This document shows positions 11,448 through 22,170 of a stretch of 23,951 nt of DNA, piece by piece; position 1 is the stretch's first letter, and each line of letters begins with the position of its first letter. The DNA is from a virus, in the IMG/VR virus record IMGVR_UViG_3300023082_000001, positions 1 to 23,951 of that record; one strand, written 5' to 3'. The notes under the pieces are model-generated. The model had not been told where the DNA came from, made no database searches, and worked only from the letters and a program-made list of their open reading frames with translations. The translations under genes were made by a program, and so were the position numbers.

Positions 11448-11618
11448 GTGTCTTATCTGTGGGAGAGCAGTAAGGTTTCTTTGGAGAAAGTACCGAGTAG
11501 CAAGGGGTACAAACCCATATAAACCGTGGGCTGTAGGCTAGTTTGTGTACTGGAATACATGTATCTAGTATCACCACTATCTATCTACTAATATTTACAA
11601 CCAATAGGAGGAGAGTAG

Positions 11619-12977
11619 TTGATTTATGAATTAAGTAAGATGAAAGAATCAGAAGTATATTCTACTAATCTAAGATGTGTAAGAAGCTATATTTATTATC
11701 ATGAATCTAAATACTACAAGAAGATAGTAGATCATATACTAGAGCATACAGAGGAAAGATGGGAAGAAGCAGTTAGATGGTGGATAAGTAATAGTGCTCG
11801 TGCCATTAAACATAAGGCTACTGGATTTGTATTTAGCTTAGATAAGAATACATATACCAAATCTGTTCAAGGTATTGGATACAGGAAAGTTAAATCTTTA
11901 GTTGATTTTCTTGAGCAAAAGGGTTATATTGATCTTTATAAAGGTTATGTGAAGTCTTGGAAAACAGTTAACGGTAAACCAAAACCTGATGTTGTTGTTC
12001 CCTCATGCCTGATATTTCGTAAGCGAACACTAGATATGTGGGAAGGAGTGGACGTTTCCTATAACCTATGGCGAGACCTTGAAGAAAGTGATCTTGCTAT
12101 CATTCGTAATCGGGAGACTAAAGAATTAATGTCTACTCGTGGTCACAAAGGTTTTAAAGATATCAAATCTGAGGTGAGGAACATGAATAACAGTTTGGAA
12201 GGTGCAGACATTACATTCGATGGTAAGCCAATTGCTGATGTTGCATATCGTCGTATCTTCAGTGGTGATTTGGATAAAGGTGGTAGACTGTACACGCTCG
12301 GTGGTGGTGTCCAACTTCTTCCACAACACATTAGGGCATCGTCCTTAAGGATTGATGGTGAAGCTGTAGTTGAGCTAGACTACTCAGCTATTCACCCCAG
12401 TATCTGCTACCAACAGATGTATAATAACGATGGCTTTAATATTTATGATGTAATGGGAACTGAGTTCTCCCCTTATGATGCTGACTTATCATTCGTTAAA
12501 GTGGATGAGAAGCTAAAAGATCAATGGGAAACATTGACGGGTAAGAAGCACAATCCTAGGCGTTCACTGGCAAAGCTTGGAATTCTTATTGGTATGAATT
12601 CCGACGATATGAACAGCGCAGCGTGGACACTTGGTAACAAGGTGAAGCTTGACAGAGAGAAAGAGGTGGAAGACCAAGAGTTTTATGCTTTAGTTGGTAA
12701 GACAGACTACGGTAAAGTGTTAGAAGCTGTGAGAAGCCATAACGATTTTATTAGAGATATGTTCTTTAATGATGGCGGCATTATGCTTCAGAATATTGAC
12801 AGCAAGATTATGATGAACATTGTTGGTGCAATGGGTGAGAAAGGTCATGCTGTTTTAGCCTATCACGACAGTGTTTTGGTTAAGGAGTCAGCAGAAGATG
12901 ATTTGAGAGAAGCTATGTTTACAGCATGGAAAACAGTCTTAAGTGATACAACATTTTGTAAGGTGGATAAGAAATGA
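11619..12977 (+). CDS. Minimal family-A DNA polymerase / T7-RNAP-like fold protein
   Basis: DKGGRLY (DxxGR), VVELDYSAIHP (motif A), RRSLAKLGILIGMN (motif B-like), LQNIDS, YHDSVLV (motif C); TTG start after AGGAGGAG. Confidence 0.7.
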   Translation: MIYELSKMKESEVYSTNLRCVRSYIYYHESKYYKKIVDHILEHTEERWEEAVRWWISNSARAIKHKATGFVFSLDKNTYTKSVQGIGYRKVKSLVDFLEQKGYIDLYKGYVKSWKTVNGKPKPDVVVPSCLIFRKRTLDMWEGVDVSYNLWRDLEESDLAIIRNRETKELMSTRGHKGFKDIKSEVRNMNNSLEGADITFDGKPIADVAYRRIFSGDLDKGGRLYTLGGGVQLLPQHIRASSLRIDGEAVVELDYSAIHPSICYQQMYNNDGFNIYDVMGTEFSPYDADLSFVKVDEKLKDQWETLTGKKHNPRRSLAKLGILIGMNSDDMNSAAWTLGNKVKLDREKEVEDQEFYALVGKTDYGKVLEAVRSHNDFIRDMFFNDGGIMLQNIDSKIMMNIVGAMGEKGHAVLAYHDSVLVKESAEDDLREAMFTAWKTVLSDTTFCKVDKK

Positions 12978-13492: not shown

Positions 13493-13815
13493 TGCCACTT
13501 GTGTTCTGGGTGGTGAAAAAAGAATTCCCTTACGTGATATGGCACAACTTTGGCGATTTCCATATGCTTGTCGGCAGGGTGAGAAGTAAGAGAATAAAAA
13601 GTTAGGAATATCTGTTCTGTAAAGACAGATTCATTGAATACTTATTTGGCCTCCGTAAGTTAGTAGGTGATGTGACATTCCTGATAAGCCGTCTTATAAG
13701 AAACAGTACACAAACCCATCTCGCTAACGTTTGTGTGTATGCTTTGCAAGGTGCAAGATAGGGCGTAAAATAATAGAGTATTCTATCAATTCCGCCGTAG
13801 CCCGCACATGCGGAA
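13493..13815 (+). ncRNA. Putative structured RNA leader with tRNA fragments
   Basis: No ORF in the track; several hairpins containing G-U pairs on the + strand (see findings). Confidence 0.4.
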
Positions 13816-13823
13816 CTAATTAT

Positions 13824-13899
13824 TGGCGATTAGCTCAGTAGGTAGAGCGAGTGACTGTTAATCACTATGTCCCAGATTCGAGTTCTGGATCGCCAGCCA
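13824..13899 (+). tRNA. tRNA-Asn (GTT)
   Basis: Acceptor TGGCGAT/ATCGCCA, D-stem GCTC/GAGC, anticodon arm AGTGA-CTGTTAA-TCACT, T-arm CCAGA-TTCGAGT-TCTGG, G73 and encoded CCA; 76 nt. Confidence 0.95.
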
Positions 13900-13965
13900 A
13901 GCATGCAGTTCGATTCTGCTCGTTAGCTGAGGGTTGGTACGAAATTGGGTTCGATTCCCTGATTA

Positions 13966-14217
13966 TCCGTTTGGTGACGGAAGCTTGACTGATGGAAAGA
14001 CATCATTAATTCTAGTTTCACCCAGCACAGAGCCAGAAGTAAATTCTACATAAATCTGTGTTGTCCTCAAACCAACAACATTTTCTCTCCTCCTATCTTC
14101 AGTGTTGTCGGTTTATTGTGTCTTCTAAGTTGCTATCTCCCGATTTAGAAGACATTTCTTTAAGTGCTGTTTATCGCTCAGCGAACACAATCTAATTGTA
14201 CCCTAACAGCCTTTAAA
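13966..14217 (+). ncRNA. Putative sRNA 1 (19-nt motif plus anti-SD loop hairpins)
   Basis: Stems 14023-31/14055-63, 14069-80/14103-14 (loop contains CTCTCCTCCTAT), 14119-32/14141-54 (loop CTATCTCC), 14166-71/14205-10. Confidence 0.5.
13986..14004 (+). repeat. 19-nt repeat TGACTGATGGAAAGACATC, copy 1
   Basis: Identical to 16315-16333. Confidence 0.9.
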
Positions 14218-14246
14218 TAAGTGTATGCACACATAGGAAATTAATC

Positions 14247-14636
14247 ATGGCTAACAAGACTCCTAACAAAGACACTAGATTTGATGGTCCTAAGTCAAAT
14301 CGTAATACAAAAAATAATAGTAAGGTTCGCATCACTAAGTCCAAACTTCGAGCTACTGCCGAAAAGCTTAGAGAAATCGAGCCTACTGCACTTGAGAATA
14401 TAAAGAAAAGTGTAGAAGGTGATAAGGTTGAGCAACAGCAATTGGATTCTTCCAAGTGGATCGTGTCTAGCATCATTGCGCTAGACCGTGCAGCCTCACA
14501 GGAAGAAGCATCTCTTACTAAGATTCGTCTTGAAGGCAAGCGTGATGAGTCTGAGGAAGATGAAGAAAACGTTGCAGAGATTGTAAAGCTTGTGCCTAGG
14601 TTGAAGCTTACGTTTGATGAGCCTGAAGAAAAATAA
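14247..14636 (+). CDS. Putative terminase small subunit
   Basis: 129 aa; basic N-terminus (TRFDGPKSNRN...), helical core, acidic stretch and terminal beta-strand (PRLKLTF); upstream of terL. Function inferred only. Confidence 0.45.
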   Translation: MANKTPNKDTRFDGPKSNRNTKNNSKVRITKSKLRATAEKLREIEPTALENIKKSVEGDKVEQQQLDSSKWIVSSIIALDRAASQEEASLTKIRLEGKRDESEEDEENVAEIVKLVPRLKLTFDEPEEK

Positions 14637-14654
14637 TAATAAAAGGAAACAACA

Positions 14655-14819
14655 ATGAACCTCATTCTAATCCTATTGATTTTACTTCTCCTACTCCCAG
14701 CTTTGGGTGTGTACACAGTTGCCGTAAGTTTTGGATTGGTAATCAAGATCCTTTTGGTTATTCTCATTGTTGGCCTGATTTTGAATGTGCTTGGTGGCAA
14801 TCGAAACTTTTGGTTTTAA
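14655..14819 (+). CDS. Small two-TM membrane protein (54 aa), absent from the ORF track
   Basis: MNLILILLILLLLLPALGVYTVAVSFGLVIKILLVILIVGLILNVLGGNRNFWF; AAGGA SD. Confidence 0.75.
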   Translation: MNLILILLILLLLLPALGVYTVAVSFGLVIKILLVILIVGLILNVLGGNRNFWF

Positions 14820-14936
14820 ACAAATAGTTTTTAAATTTAAACTATTCAAATTACTCTTGATGATAGAGAGATATAAGAATAGGAAATGAATCAAGATTGT
14901 CTGGTAATACCACAATAATTAAAAAACGGATGCACT

Positions 14937-16220
14937 ATGACACCAGATGAGAAGTACACAATAATTTCAAGGGTTGGTCCAGCTGCTGCTGCCCTATCTG
15001 GTGTCTACGGAGACGATCAGCTCGATACATATAAGCTAACCAAGAATCTTTTTGGTAGATTTAAAACTGTAGCACCTTCAACAGATCCTATTACCTTCAA
15101 TATGATGACAGAAGTTGAAACTGACTTTATGTCTGTACGTATTGCTATTCCAAACCTGCATACAAGTGCTGTGGCAGGCGTTAAGGTTAGCGTCTCTGTC
15201 TCATCTGAAAACTTTGTAGAAGACTTTGCAACAAAGGTTGATTCTGTTAATGGAAGCCCTTGGATTGATGCAACGTTCAAAGGAGCTACTTCAGTGAGTC
15301 TTCCTGTAGCCCTAGGAACGGATCGTCCATCTTGGACTTACACCGACATTATCCCTGTTCAAAGTGTCCCCACTACAAGCACAACACGTACAAAACCTTT
15401 TCTTATGGTGAGGATTGAATATCCTGCCAATAGCACTCTGACATGTCCTTACAATGATATCTATTTTTGGCGCACTATTGGTGTTCATCCAACATTGCGT
15501 GTAGCTCAACAAAATGTTCTTGGTGTCACCACTAAAAGTTCGTTCACACAATTTATCACAAGTGATACAAATGTAGTTGTTCCAGCATTCGAATACAATA
15601 CATCTGTACTAGGTAAGCAAGTTGTAATGTGTGGGGATAGCACTGTTGCAGGACAAGGAAGTCAAGTTAGAGACTTTGGGGCTGTCCAACGTGCTTGTGT
15701 CAAAATGAGCAGCAAATCATCTCCTATTGAATACTTCAATACAGCCAAGCTTGGATTAGGTCCAGCCGAGTATTCTAAAGGATTGATAGACGTTATCACT
15801 GAAGTGGCACCAACAGATGTTTTCTATTCCCCATATTCTGTAAATGATACTGACACAGGTGGATTGTCTGCCTTACAAGTTGGCAGAGTTTATGGATATC
15901 TTGGCTACGTTAACTCCAATATTGATGCACACAAAACTAATCTGTTTTTGCTGGAAGGATTGCCCTGTAATCCAACATTCAGAGATACAGGTGCTGGGGA
16001 TAGCAAACGGCGAGATATCAACGTAGCAATTAGTAAGTATAAGTTTGCAACTGTTGTTAAAGATTATGCCAAGGTGGTTAGTGGCAATATTGATGCAGAT
16101 GGACAAACCCTAATCAAAGATGGATATGATTCAGGAGATGGGGTCCATCTCACCGATGCAGGCTATGATTCCTTAAGTGATCAGATTACACCTTACTTTA
16201 AGCCTTATAACGTGGCTTAA
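14937..16220 (+). CDS. SGNH/GDSL hydrolase domain protein
   Basis: CGDSTVAG (block I), FNTAKLG (II), YSVND (III), DGVHLTDAGY (V); beta-rich N-terminal domain. Confidence 0.8.
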   Translation: MTPDEKYTIISRVGPAAAALSGVYGDDQLDTYKLTKNLFGRFKTVAPSTDPITFNMMTEVETDFMSVRIAIPNLHTSAVAGVKVSVSVSSENFVEDFATKVDSVNGSPWIDATFKGATSVSLPVALGTDRPSWTYTDIIPVQSVPTTSTTRTKPFLMVRIEYPANSTLTCPYNDIYFWRTIGVHPTLRVAQQNVLGVTTKSSFTQFITSDTNVVVPAFEYNTSVLGKQVVMCGDSTVAGQGSQVRDFGAVQRACVKMSSKSSPIEYFNTAKLGLGPAEYSKGLIDVITEVAPTDVFYSPYSVNDTDTGGLSALQVGRVYGYLGYVNSNIDAHKTNLFLLEGLPCNPTFRDTGAGDSKRRDINVAISKYKFATVVKDYAKVVSGNIDADGQTLIKDGYDSGDGVHLTDAGYDSLSDQITPYFKPYNVA

Positions 16221-16224
16221 TATG

Positions 16225-16558
16225 TGAGTGGAAAGAATCAAGTAGTGATGCTTGGTATCGAACTGCCTAGTTCGTTTGCTCGACTCATTCTGGCGGATGA
16301 GGTTGTAAAATAAATGACTGATGGAAAGACATCGTTGTGGAGAAGCTGAGTAAATCTTGTACTCAGAGAGCTGTCAGGTCAGGTTAAGATTGTGGACGCT
16401 GGCACAACTATTCACGTAAGTACACTACGGACACAGTGATGTGTCTCCTCCTAACGTTATAGCCCAACGTGTGTACTAGGGCTAACTAATTAGATTTTAC
16501 ACAGGCTAGGCTGTCCTTTAAAAGCCGTCGCAGTCTGTACGGCTATATAAATCCTAGC
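16225..16558 (+). ncRNA. Putative structured ncRNA island 2
   Basis: Three-way junction with a GTGA tetraloop, 19-nt repeat, two loop-loop complementarities, anti-SD tract. Confidence 0.55.
16315..16333 (+). repeat. 19-nt repeat TGACTGATGGAAAGACATC, copy 2
   Basis: Identical to 13986-14004. Confidence 0.9.
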
Positions 16559-19757: not shown

Positions 19758-20720
19758 TTGAATTACGAAAAGATTTACAACGCACTTGTAGAAAAAGCTA
19801 AAGTTCGTGGGTTAGATAAAAGTAAGGACTCTGGCTATTATGAGATTCACCACATTCTTCCGAGATGTTTGGGAGGGTCTGACCATAAAAGTAACCTAGT
19901 GATGTTTACGGGAAGGGAACATTTTATTTCACATATGTTGTTGTGGAAGATGTACCCTAGAAATTCTGATCTTATGCACGCAGCATGGATGATGAGCCAT
20001 ACTCGTAAAGGTTATAAAGTTAATTCAACGACTTATGAAGCTCTCAGTATTGACCACTCTATTTGGCTTTCTGAAAGAATGGGAGGGATAAACAGCCCTC
20101 AATTCAAGGACTTGACAGGTCAGCGAAATGGTAAACTAGTTGTACTTGAACATGTAGGCTGGAAACTGCTTAATAATGGGTTCAGTACATCTACTTGGCT
20201 ATGCCAATGTGACTGTGGAAATTTCAGAACTCTCCAATCTAAAGAAGTTAGCCTTTCTTGTAAATCATCTTATAAGTCTTGCGGTTGTCTTACTGCTGAA
20301 GTCTCCTCATTGAGGGTTGGTGATAAGAATGCTTTCTACGGAAGGACTCATTCAGAAGAATCAAAGGCTAAGATGGCTGAAAAGAAATTTGGGCGTTCAC
20401 CTTCTAACAAAGGTGTAAAAGGAACTCCAGAGAAAAGTCAAAGAATTAAAGATAGTTTGTCAAAAATTAAAAGATTTTCTTGGTTGCACCCCTCTATTAC
20501 ATCAGACCCAGTAAAGACTGAGATGTGGAAGATGGCAATGTTTTATTACGACCTTTATCTTACTAATACAATTTTGACAAAAGCAAAGTTCACAACACTT
20601 TACAATAAACTCTATTGTGATGATATACCTTCATCGGCTCTCTATATTATGCACGATAAATTCTCTGGCGGTTGGGTTCCTTTAGAAGACAGCGAGTGGG
20701 TTAAATTTTCTAAAGGATGA
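19758..20720 (+). CDS. HNH homing endonuclease with NUMOD3-like motif
   Basis: EIHHILPRCLGGSD..NLV..GREHFISH; DLTGQRNGKLVV..CQCDCGN; NAFYGRTHSEESKAKM. Confidence 0.85.
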   Translation: MNYEKIYNALVEKAKVRGLDKSKDSGYYEIHHILPRCLGGSDHKSNLVMFTGREHFISHMLLWKMYPRNSDLMHAAWMMSHTRKGYKVNSTTYEALSIDHSIWLSERMGGINSPQFKDLTGQRNGKLVVLEHVGWKLLNNGFSTSTWLCQCDCGNFRTLQSKEVSLSCKSSYKSCGCLTAEVSSLRVGDKNAFYGRTHSEESKAKMAEKKFGRSPSNKGVKGTPEKSQRIKDSLSKIKRFSWLHPSITSDPVKTEMWKMAMFYYDLYLTNTILTKAKFTTLYNKLYCDDIPSSALYIMHDKFSGGWVPLEDSEWVKFSKG

Positions 20721-20724
20721 ATTA

Positions 20725-22170
20725 ATGAAAGATAAAAAATTACCGGGTCCAATTTCAGAACGTCAGCGAATGTATGTCACTGCTGATGTGGATGTGACCC
20801 TATATGGTGGTGCGGCTGGATCTGGAAAAAGTGAAATTGGCGTAATTGATTTTCTCAAGTATACCGACATCCCTAATTTTATCGGTGTTATGACTCGAAG
20901 AAACACCCCCCAGTTGACCGGGCCCGGTGGTTTGCTAACTAAGTGCAAAAGGATATTTGCTCAAGCTTACGATCCTGATGAATATACATGGCGTGCTAAA
21001 GATGGTAAGTTTGTCTTTCATAAATCTGGTGCGGAAATATATTTAAAACACTTTGAAAATGATCAGAGTGATGTGTCTTGGCAAGGTAGTGAAGCAAATC
21101 TTTTCTACGTAGATGAGGGAACACAGTTCACTCAGCACATGATTCAGTACATCATGTCTCGTATGCGTAATCCTTCGTGTCCTGAAGTAAAGCCTCATAT
21201 GAAAATTACCTGTAACCCTCACAATTCACATTTTTTGAGGAAATGGGTAGAGCCTTATTTGCAAGAGGACGGCACACCAGATAGGAATAAAGACGGAGTA
21301 GTTAGATACTTCTCATTCCAAGATGGTGATTTTGTGTGGGCTGATACAAAACAAGAGCTAGTTAGAGATTATGGCATTCCAGAAGAAGATGCTCTCTCTT
21401 TTACATTCATTAGTGCAACAGTTGATGATAACCCAATCGTTAAGCGCATAAATCCAAAATACGTCGCATGGCTTAAAGGTCTCAAGGGTGTAGAAAAAAG
21501 TAGACTTTTACTCGGAAATTGGTTTGTAAAAGAAAGTTCTGTTGGGTATTGGTCAGAGAAATGGGTAACTCCTGTAAGGCTACATGAACAACAAATAGTG
21601 TCATATTGTAGAGCTTGGGATATTGCAGGCTCTCTTCCCGCAGATGATACACCAAATCCTGACTGGACAGCTGGTGTGTTGATGGCAAAAACAAAAGGTG
21701 GTCGTTACATCATTTGTGATGTTGTCAGATTTAGAGCACGTTATGGTGAAGTTATTAGGCGTATTATTGAGACAGCTGGTGAAGATCCAGAAAACACACA
21801 GATTATACTGCCTCAAGAGCCCGGCCAAGCTGGTAAAGCAGCTGGTCAGATGATGATTAAAGATTTACTTGGTGAAGGATTTTACGCACGTATGCGACCT
21901 TCTAACAAAAGCAAAGTTATTAGGTTTTCTTCTTTCGCAGCAGCTTGCGAAGCGGGGCTTGTAGACTACGTGGAAGGCGCTTGGAACGAAGCTTACTTTG
22001 ACGAATTGGAGCGTTTTGATGGAACCCGCGCTGTAAAGGATGATCAAGTGGACGCCTCATCGGACAGCTTCATAACCTTAGCTCAAAAACTTCTAGTCCC
22101 AAACATCCTCTCCGGTCTTCAATCATTCGGCTTTGAACAAACAAGAAACCCCCTTAACAACATCCGATAA
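20725..22170 (+). CDS. terL: Terminase large subunit
   Basis: Walker A GGAAGSGKS, Walker B YVDEG, TCNP, nuclease RAWDIA and KDDQVDA. Confidence 0.95.
   Translation: MKDKKLPGPISERQRMYVTADVDVTLYGGAAGSGKSEIGVIDFLKYTDIPNFIGVMTRRNTPQLTGPGGLLTKCKRIFAQAYDPDEYTWRAKDGKFVFHKSGAEIYLKHFENDQSDVSWQGSEANLFYVDEGTQFTQHMIQYIMSRMRNPSCPEVKPHMKITCNPHNSHFLRKWVEPYLQEDGTPDRNKDGVVRYFSFQDGDFVWADTKQELVRDYGIPEEDALSFTFISATVDDNPIVKRINPKYVAWLKGLKGVEKSRLLLGNWFVKESSVGYWSEKWVTPVRLHEQQIVSYCRAWDIAGSLPADDTPNPDWTAGVLMAKTKGGRYIICDVVRFRARYGEVIRRIIETAGEDPENTQIILPQEPGQAGKAAGQMMIKDLLGEGFYARMRPSNKSKVIRFSSFAAACEAGLVDYVEGAWNEAYFDELERFDGTRAVKDDQVDASSDSFITLAQKLLVPNILSGLQSFGFEQTRNPLNNIR

Follow-up and report, generated by a model that had tools for sequence, protein, structure and literature searches.

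Two non-coding stretches of a phage genome carry the same short hairpin, which raises the question of what this element is and what it does there. The DNA analysed here (the window) covers the first 23,951 nucleotides (nt) of a virus record that is 89,412 nt long and has direct terminal repeats (IMG/VR record IMGVR_UViG_3300023082_000001). The 19-mer TGACTGATGGAAAGACATC is present exactly at positions 13986-14004, in what we call island 1, and at 16315-16333, in island 2. Both copies lie on the + strand, co-oriented with a tRNA-Asn gene and the flanking genes, and the genome holds no others; within the window no third copy is found at three or fewer mismatches, with 0.03 matches expected from shuffles. 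A first-pass annotation took the islands for two paralogous members of a family of small RNAs (sRNAs) that target Shine-Dalgarno (SD) sequences, with the hairpin as a protein-binding, processing or 5'-stabilising module. We find that the hairpin is an undescribed and very widespread RNA motif that is not private to this phage. At somewhat less than even confidence, we propose that it acts as punctuation, in that it would close a folded RNA unit and provide a docking point for a conserved factor of RNA processing or maturation.

Both copies fold as UGAUG, GAAAGA and CAUC(A or G), giving a stem of 5 base pairs (bp) and a six-base loop. In copy 1 (13986-14005, + strand), positions 13990-13994 pair with 14001-14005 around the loop at 13995-14000. 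Copy 1 has U-A as its fifth pair and copy 2 has U-G, which can form only in + strand RNA. A single-stranded UGAC stands 5' of the stem in both. Each copy is preceded by a hairpin with TGG in its loop, at 13966-13981 (loop TTGGTG) and at 16284-16301 (loop TCTGGCGG), and both of these are kept in related phages with compensatory stem changes. Apart from these two adjacent modules, the islands share a C/U-rich tract, TCTCCTCCTA, at 14086-14095 and 16444-16453, the only + strand copies in the genome. As had been noted at first pass, the sequences between the shared elements differ; the islands otherwise have no sequence in common. No general co-occurrence of a UGGYG-loop hairpin upstream of the UGAC hairpin was found, and this pairing is specific to the present phage lineage.

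A sample of IMG/VR loci, seeded by the exact 19-mer, comprised at least 119 contigs, which gave 97 non-redundant contexts and 53 unrelated flank families (hereafter, families). Both islands were also compared with related loci (L122-L129, L027, L080, L094 and L097; loci are denoted by L numbers). Across 22 distinct copies of the hairpin, 89% of stem cells pair, compared to 57% in shuffles, and there are 41 double-sided stem changes, which none of 500 shuffles reached. This signal collapses once the partner strand is slid. About two dozen variant copies have wholly different yet pairing stems, such as AGCUUG/CAAGC, GACUCG/CGAGU and AAACCG/CGGUU, and among relatives of this phage the stem shifts compensatorily from UGAUG/CAUC to AAACCG/CGGUU. 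In 795 kilobases (kb) of motif-oriented loci, GAC-prefixed hairpins number 119 in the sense and 0 in the antisense direction. UGAC is near-invariant in 116 copies, where its G, A and C were required by selection, and invariant in the 22 distinct copies. Conservation has sharp borders, ending at UGAC on the 5' side and at the stem end on the 3' side. The covarying stem, the invariant loop and flank and the sharp borders together define the unit as UGAC, N (one or two bases), a G-C-closed stem of 4-6 bp and a GAAAGA loop. The earlier view of the element as a + strand RNA hairpin is strongly backed by this covariation, and the search pattern suggested with it (GAC-N-stem-GAAAGA-stem) proved essentially right.

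Some families carry further elements 5' of the hairpin. YCAUAA lies 19-30 nt upstream of UGAC in 13 of the 53 families (for example L018, L005, L014 and L056), with control counts of 0/53 downstream and 4/53 antisense, and ACGGYU or AAAUCY also recurs in some families. These elements are absent from both window copies. In the lineages that do carry them, the motif may extend further.

No named family could be assigned to the motif at first pass, and this still holds. Rfam 15 scans of the window (E<=1), of both islands (E<=10) and of 41 other hairpin loci returned no family for the hairpin, the window yielding only the tRNA-Asn, and literature searches on the loop or the motif gave nothing on a UGAC/GAAAGA hairpin. 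The 53 families, counted among the matches listed, have very different base compositions and include tRNA arrays, mRNA leaders, lambdoid late operons and 16S rRNA trailers of candidate phyla radiation (CPR) bacteria. Among isolated phages, 249 records match at least about 20 bases across the hairpin, including HK544, P22-like and Flavobacterium phages. A GGAC variant sits between the lysis genes and the terminase region in HK544 and P22-like phages, and Flavobacterium elemo phages have a near-exact copy about 124 nt past a tRNA-Ala. The hairpin-bearing block of HK544 is matched in 1125 of 5426 complete Escherichia coli genomes; about one fifth of these genomes carry the hairpin, through prophages. 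Many of the matches stop at query base 139, approximately the hairpin end. Among the 12 E. coli matches listed, none has an RNA annotation, ten have no feature at all and two lie under a Rha-family regulator gene. Lysogens of HK544 or P22-like phages and the Flavobacterium elemo phages offer tractable test systems.

The exact 19-mer was also found in the genomes of 26 bacterial species, many of them CPR bacteria. In four CPR (Patescibacteria) loci (L146, L137, L141 and L134) it lies about 110 nt 3' of the 16S rRNA, where the trailer is strongly conserved; further downstream come a terminator-like hairpin with a U-run and then an RNase P RNA gene in place of the 23S rRNA. In a second CPR group the hairpin precedes a conserved pseudoknot. 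Such a pseudoknot follows the hairpin in L136 and recurs in L139, L140, L142, L151, L153 and L155-L157. L136, which is labelled Parcubacteria, also has four canonical-looking type III hammerheads on the same strand (766-820, 1328-1408, 2274-2327 and 2656-2722 in the oriented locus), all below the Rfam gathering score; the first is 93 nt after the hairpin and pseudoknot. A role of the hairpin as a general CPR feature was rejected: in 301 genomes of the phylum a loose pattern was about as frequent as its reversed control, and nearly all matches were stemless. That search missed the known rRNA-adjacent copy in genome G001 and may therefore be blind to rRNA neighbourhoods.

The placement of the hairpin relative to neighbouring RNAs bears on its function. 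All nearby tRNAs are co-oriented with it. Where a tRNA lies 3' of the motif, with or without a long insert, it starts 4-9 nt after, mostly 5 nt; the distance from an upstream tRNA to the hairpin is variable, from 5 to 83 nt or more. Neighbours also include tmRNA-like (transfer-messenger-like) and GOLLD RNAs. Other copies are found 30-40 nt 5' of start codons or shortly past a strong promoter (L043 and L045), and a U-run directly follows the hairpin in 6 of the 53 families. When pairs of loci were compared, 26 kept the upstream 50 nt (at least 80% identity) while losing the downstream 50 nt (below 60%), and the reverse was seen in three. This asymmetry indicates that the hairpin travels with the preceding sequence and closes that unit, the following sequence being variable cargo. 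Island 1 fits such a 3'-end placement: its upstream tRNA-like element and hairpin are conserved, and the sequence after them varies, with a tRNA-Asn following in L027, a tRNA-like gene in L097 and neither in the window or L094.

Two further observations concern these arrays. GOLLD RNA and permuted tmRNA genes share arrays with the hairpin in L102 (1998-2418), L013 (1431-1783) and L020 (1518-1779). In L004, L072, L091 and L102, matches of 87-115 nt to the Rfam tRNA model begin 4-6 nt after the hairpin and are not called by ARAGORN; these may be tRNAs with introns or large inserts.

In the mechanism that we envisage, the hairpin would form the 3' end of the upstream RNA unit, and 4-9 nt beyond it would begin the next unit, which may be an mRNA leader, a further hairpin array, a tRNA or a tRNA-like RNA. 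The hairpin would provide a sequence-specific docking site for a broadly conserved RNA-processing or maturation factor. A cut would then fall at the 5' end of the next unit (for a tRNA, RNase P would be the enzyme); alternatively, transcription might terminate at a U-run after the hairpin. Either way, the upstream RNA would be left with a bound 3' end whose tail is too short for a 3' exonuclease to grip. Since the stem is weak (4-5 bp), a bound partner is a necessary part of this scheme. The first-pass suggestion of a protein-binding, processing or 5'-stabilising module is thereby kept in one half and reversed in the other: a protein-binding, processing or end-defining role fits the placement, and the element appears to act as the 3' end of an upstream unit instead of as a 5' module.

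The histone mRNA stem-loop with its stem-loop-binding protein (SLBP), and the MALAT1 triple helix upstream of the RNase P-cleaved mascRNA, are 3'-end-defining structures that precede a cleavage site. The UGAC hairpin is like them in being a small conserved structure that belongs to the upstream RNA and lies a few fixed nt before the cut of the next unit, here 4-9 nt before tRNA 5' ends. Those structures are eukaryotic and have known partners, whereas cleavage and a partner of the UGAC hairpin are proposed from its position, and many copies have no following tRNA.

An all-versus-all comparison of 1965 open reading frames from the 97 loci found no protein family in more than 12 loci, and those loci belong to related phages. 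The lack of a protein family common to the neighbourhoods fits a host-encoded or distant partner. It also speaks for a different explanation, in which the hairpin is a partner-less structural insulator that guards neighbouring RNAs against misfolding and has spread horizontally among phages. The hairpin always lies between independently folding units, and in relatives other hairpins substitute for it, as in island 2 of L123 and L129. However, if the hairpin were only a spacer, its six-base loop, closing pair and single-stranded UGAC would not stay invariant across phyla, and we consider the insulator unlikely.

Several considerations weigh against the hairpin as punctuation. The 26 and three locus pairs are not independent events, and by our reading of the pairs they represent about eight families. 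The seeding of the locus sample with the exact 19-mer biases the context frequencies. Neither in island 2 nor in the 16S trailers of CPR bacteria does the hairpin mark an obvious end; a longer conserved RNA extends on both sides of it. A stem of 4-5 bp that is AU-rich cannot block exonucleases on its own. The RNase P protein binds the leader of pre-tRNAs, so that a hairpin reaching to about -5 might hinder cleavage instead of helping it. Finally, we infer the binding partner, the cleavage and its site, the transcript end and any protection of the RNA wholly from placement.

The sRNA model holds that the hairpin is the 5' module of a trans-acting sRNA family with a downstream anti-SD seed. In its favor, TCTCCTCCTA lies 3' of both hairpin copies and is otherwise absent from the + strand. 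Its sole reverse complement in the genome is at ATAGGAGGAGAG (11604-11615, + strand), the ribosome-binding site (RBS) of gene 11619-12977, which codes for 452 amino acids (aa). Island-1 positions 14085-14096 (CTCTCCTCCTAT) are antisense to this site over 12 of 12 nt; the predicted duplex has an energy of -21.4 kcal/mol, and among 301 candidate initiation regions the site ranks first for the island-1 tract and second for the island-2 tract. The island-1 tract is unpaired, in the 18-nt loop of a hairpin, and CU-loop hairpins, one or several and with a loop near UUUCUCUCCUC, are present in the equivalent region of most related loci on different, covarying stems. Promoter-like and terminator-like signals are likewise present at island 1.

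In contrast, the tract is not coupled to the hairpin generally. CU-rich tracts follow the hairpin in 7 of the 53 families, precede it in 6 and occur antisense in 6, so that there is no enrichment on the 3' side. The island-2 tract (16444-16453, + strand) is not part of the conserved RNA, and relatives lack it; the region has a z-score of -0.6 and the tract is only about half unpaired in the minimum-energy fold, so the first-pass statement that both tracts are largely unpaired applies to island 1 and not to island 2. The hairpin is moreover inherited with the upstream sequence and not with the downstream sequence, and in L027, L097 and L075 a tRNA or tRNA-like gene separates the hairpin from the sequence after it. 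Only the window, L126 and L122 show strong pairing with the homologous RBS; in L123-L125 (-9 kcal/mol), L127 and L129 it is weak. Weak pairing goes with a weaker SD sequence at the homologous gene, suggesting that the loop may be a general anti-SD element instead of a dedicated regulator. The presence of the hairpin in 53 unrelated flank contexts means that it does not define a private SD-targeting family, and we regard the sRNA model as rather unlikely.

What is retained of the anti-SD proposal is the CU loop of island 1 as a real, separate module that is antisense to an RBS. The CU tract is a lineage-specific module distinct from the hairpin, and its island-1 copy probably pairs with the RBS of gene 11619-12977 or with strong SD sites generally. 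The island-1 loop and this RBS constitute a concrete, testable candidate for a phage riboregulator and its target. Cyanobacterial Yfr1 is an sRNA with a conserved unpaired motif, of the type with a C/U-rich loop. The CU-loop hairpin (14069-14114), and only this part of island 1, is similar in having a pyrimidine-rich loop seed between hairpins that is complementary to an RBS and is conserved while the stems vary. It differs in that the unit has no Rfam sRNA match and that the predicted seed is close to a generic anti-SD sequence and may not be target-specific.

A short hairpin in phage transcripts with a purine-rich loop and a conserved 5' element also calls to mind the nut sites of lambda, and the UGAC hairpin might be a boxB analogue that loads a factor on RNA polymerase for antitermination. 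It shares with boxB a G/A-rich loop, a single-stranded 5' element and its reading as sense-strand RNA; it sometimes lies shortly past a strong promoter, as in L043 and L045, and ACGGYU or CAUAA is loosely conserved 20-45 nt upstream in several families. However, the loop is a G-C-closed hexaloop (GAAAGA), whereas boxB has a GNRA-like pentaloop, and a nut site comprises boxA and belongs to an early leader, whereas no boxA was found at the window copies, whose neighbours are tRNAs and late or structural genes. There is no enrichment of promoters upstream, and further copies of the hairpin stand within tRNA arrays and, in lambdoid phages, in the Q-dependent late operon. In the CPR loci a terminator-like hairpin and U-run come afterwards, at the end of the 16S unit, and in the six families noted above a U-run follows directly; such terminator-like hairpins and U-runs argue against a role in antitermination. 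We know of no N-like protein in some of the phyla in which the UGAC hairpin occurs. Taken together, these differences make an antitermination signal improbable.

A promoter-plus-leader cassette was considered separately and rejected on the lack of enrichment of sigma-70-like promoters upstream of the hairpin. A likeness to Proteo-phage-1 (RF03044) was also followed: a weak match lies about 50 nt upstream of the hairpin in P22-like prophages, seen upstream in one prophage, and did not generalise. At 20.7 bits it falls below the gathering score of 42, and it excludes the hairpin; neither the window nor nine further loci with the hairpin match RF03044.

The proximity to phage tRNAs raises the further possibility that the hairpin belongs to a small self-cleaving ribozyme that processes tRNA-containing transcripts, either a hammerhead-like one or one of the theta type, which resembles the ribozyme of hepatitis delta virus (HDV). 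Theta (minimal HDV-like) ribozymes abut phage tRNA 3' ends, have a double-pseudoknot core with a catalytic C and are believed to take part in transcript processing (Kienbeck et al. 2024, PMC10879173). The UGAC hairpin likewise is a small conserved RNA that adjoins phage tRNA genes and shares their orientation. Both CUGAUG and GAAA occur in the exact copy, and L136 has true type III hammerheads in the same transcript. Against this, conservation is limited to about 20 nt, below any known ribozyme core, the flanks are not conserved, the element precedes tRNA 5' ends, and no ribozyme family is matched at E<=10. A hammerhead, which has CUGANGA and GAAA cores and three helices, was rejected: variants keep the fold and lose CUGAUG, no stem II or III is present, and there is no Rfam match at E<=10. 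An HDV-like or theta ribozyme was rejected on the absence of conserved partner strands outside the hairpin, its position before tRNA 5' ends and the absence of an Rfam match to the HDV family. A ribozyme is thus extremely improbable.

In both window copies the closing pair and loop (13995-14001 and 16324-16330, with the closing G) read GGAAAGAC, the sequence of 23S rRNA nt 2056-2063 as quoted in PMC12887398. A2058, within this segment, is the macrolide and Erm site. The hairpin might therefore mimic the A2058 loop, so that an enzyme or toxin acting at this site of unassembled rRNA would bind it as a decoy or use it as a substrate. The 23S octamer is universally conserved, which would explain conservation of the hairpin across phyla, and several variants extend the identity to CGGAAAGAC or ACGGAAAGAC. 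By our estimate, however, an 8-mer matches the approximately 4.4 kb of rRNA by chance in about 7% of cases, and the identity could be a coincidence. The ribosome does not present these bases as a hexaloop, nothing at a suitable distance in the rRNA corresponds to the conserved UGAC flank, and no such enzyme is linked to the hairpin. We consider this mimicry very improbable.

The element is identical in unrelated genomes, and modules are shuffled at or near it among relatives, as might be expected if it were a DNA-level, single-strand signal for recombination, priming or cassette exchange. This is contradicted by the strict co-orientation with tRNAs and genes and by G-U pairs, which work only in the sense RNA. 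Breakpoints fall at the tRNA border, 8-11 nt past the hairpin, and not inside it, and no recombinase is linked. A DNA signal is, accordingly, very improbable.

Punctuation of RNA units remains the reading that we favor, and it can be stated in a broader form. A 20-nt element whose loop and flank are invariant in very different phages and in CPR rRNA operons points to undescribed common RNA-handling machinery. It is conceivable, and in our judgement decidedly unlikely, that the hairpin is the recognition element of an unrecognised broad pathway for marking the ends of, or maturing, stable RNAs, or else a decoy copy of the 23S A2058 loop. Such a pathway would be common to phages of Proteobacteria, Bacteroidota and other phyla and to some CPR rRNA operons, and would be a bacterial counterpart of the histone stem-loop with SLBP. 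In annotation, the hairpin could be used as a marker of non-coding RNA unit boundaries in phage genomes.

Island 1 contains several features around copy 1, all on the + strand. A sigma-70-like promoter match (13743-13771; TTGCAA, a 16-17 nt spacer and TAAAAT) comes from a consensus scan whose matches are not enriched over shuffles. The tRNA-Asn (GTT) at 13824-13899, called by ARAGORN and scoring 67.6 bits against the Rfam tRNA model, encodes its CCA end and is directly followed by a T-arm-like hairpin (13905-13919; GCAG, UUCGAUU, CUGC) that is kept in L094, L027 and L097. Next comes a tRNA-like element without an anticodon arm (13925-13985), consisting of an AGCU/AGCU closing stem, a D-loop-like GAGGGUUGGUAC, a T-loop hairpin at 13947-13959, where a weak T-arm match is found, and the TTGGTG-loop hairpin. 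It is kept in four related loci, both of its hairpins with compensatory changes; its closing stem and elbow contact are inferred. The whole block of tRNA-Asn, T-arm-like hairpin, tRNA-like element, TTGGTG-loop hairpin and UGAC hairpin is kept in L094, L027 and L097 with compensatory changes.

Downstream of the UGAC hairpin, alignment and folding place a hairpin preceded by GUUUCACCC at 14023-14063, an arrangement also present in L094 and L097. The CU-loop hairpin follows (14069-14114; loop 14083-14100, unpaired in the fold). A terminator-like hairpin of 15 bp with a U-rich tail (14118-14165), from consensus scan and fold, is the probable 3' end of the island-1 transcript, and the promoter match at 13743-13771 could be its start. 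As consensus matches, these two signals would frame island 1 as one transcript.

Island 2 is a non-coding RNA of about 180 nt with six hairpins (16232-16412, + strand), as defined with RNAalifold from an alignment with six related loci. H1 spans 16237-16256, H2 16259-16274 and H3, the TGG-loop hairpin, 16284-16301; H4 (16315-16334) is copy 2 of the UGAC hairpin, and after a GGAGAAG linker (16339-16345) come H5 (16346-16366) and H6 (16372-16404). In relatives the stems covary, including that of the UGAC hairpin, the loops and linker are conserved, and the RNA is always 3' of a homologue of gene 14247-14636; the z-score of the single sequence is only -1.5. In L027 and L097 a tRNA-Met comes after the first three hairpins instead. 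Two additional contacts were considered and rejected from our reading of the alignment. A three-way junction closed by GUUGUG/CACAAC is not maintained in relatives. The H5 loop AAUCUU (16353-16358) is complementary to AAGAUU in the H6 loop (16386-16391), a pair that is kept in L126 and not in L080, L124 or L128.

Genes in the first 11.3 kb of the window are small and on the - strand, and from 11619 onward genes are on the + strand. The + strand run begins with the 452-aa protein (phrog_4756, function unknown) and continues with the tRNA-Asn, a 129-aa protein and a weakly GDSL-like 427-aa protein, followed by a tail-fibre-like protein, a homing endonuclease, the large terminase and the portal protein. 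No isolated phage was found to resemble the region at the DNA level, the tRNA excepted, and a search for relatives through the 427-aa gene found none. The homing endonuclease gene (19758-20720) is of the HNH type and lies directly 5' of the large terminase gene (the two together spanning 19758-22170). The terminase profile match starts only at profile position 145, and the terminase gene may therefore be split or interrupted by the endonuclease.

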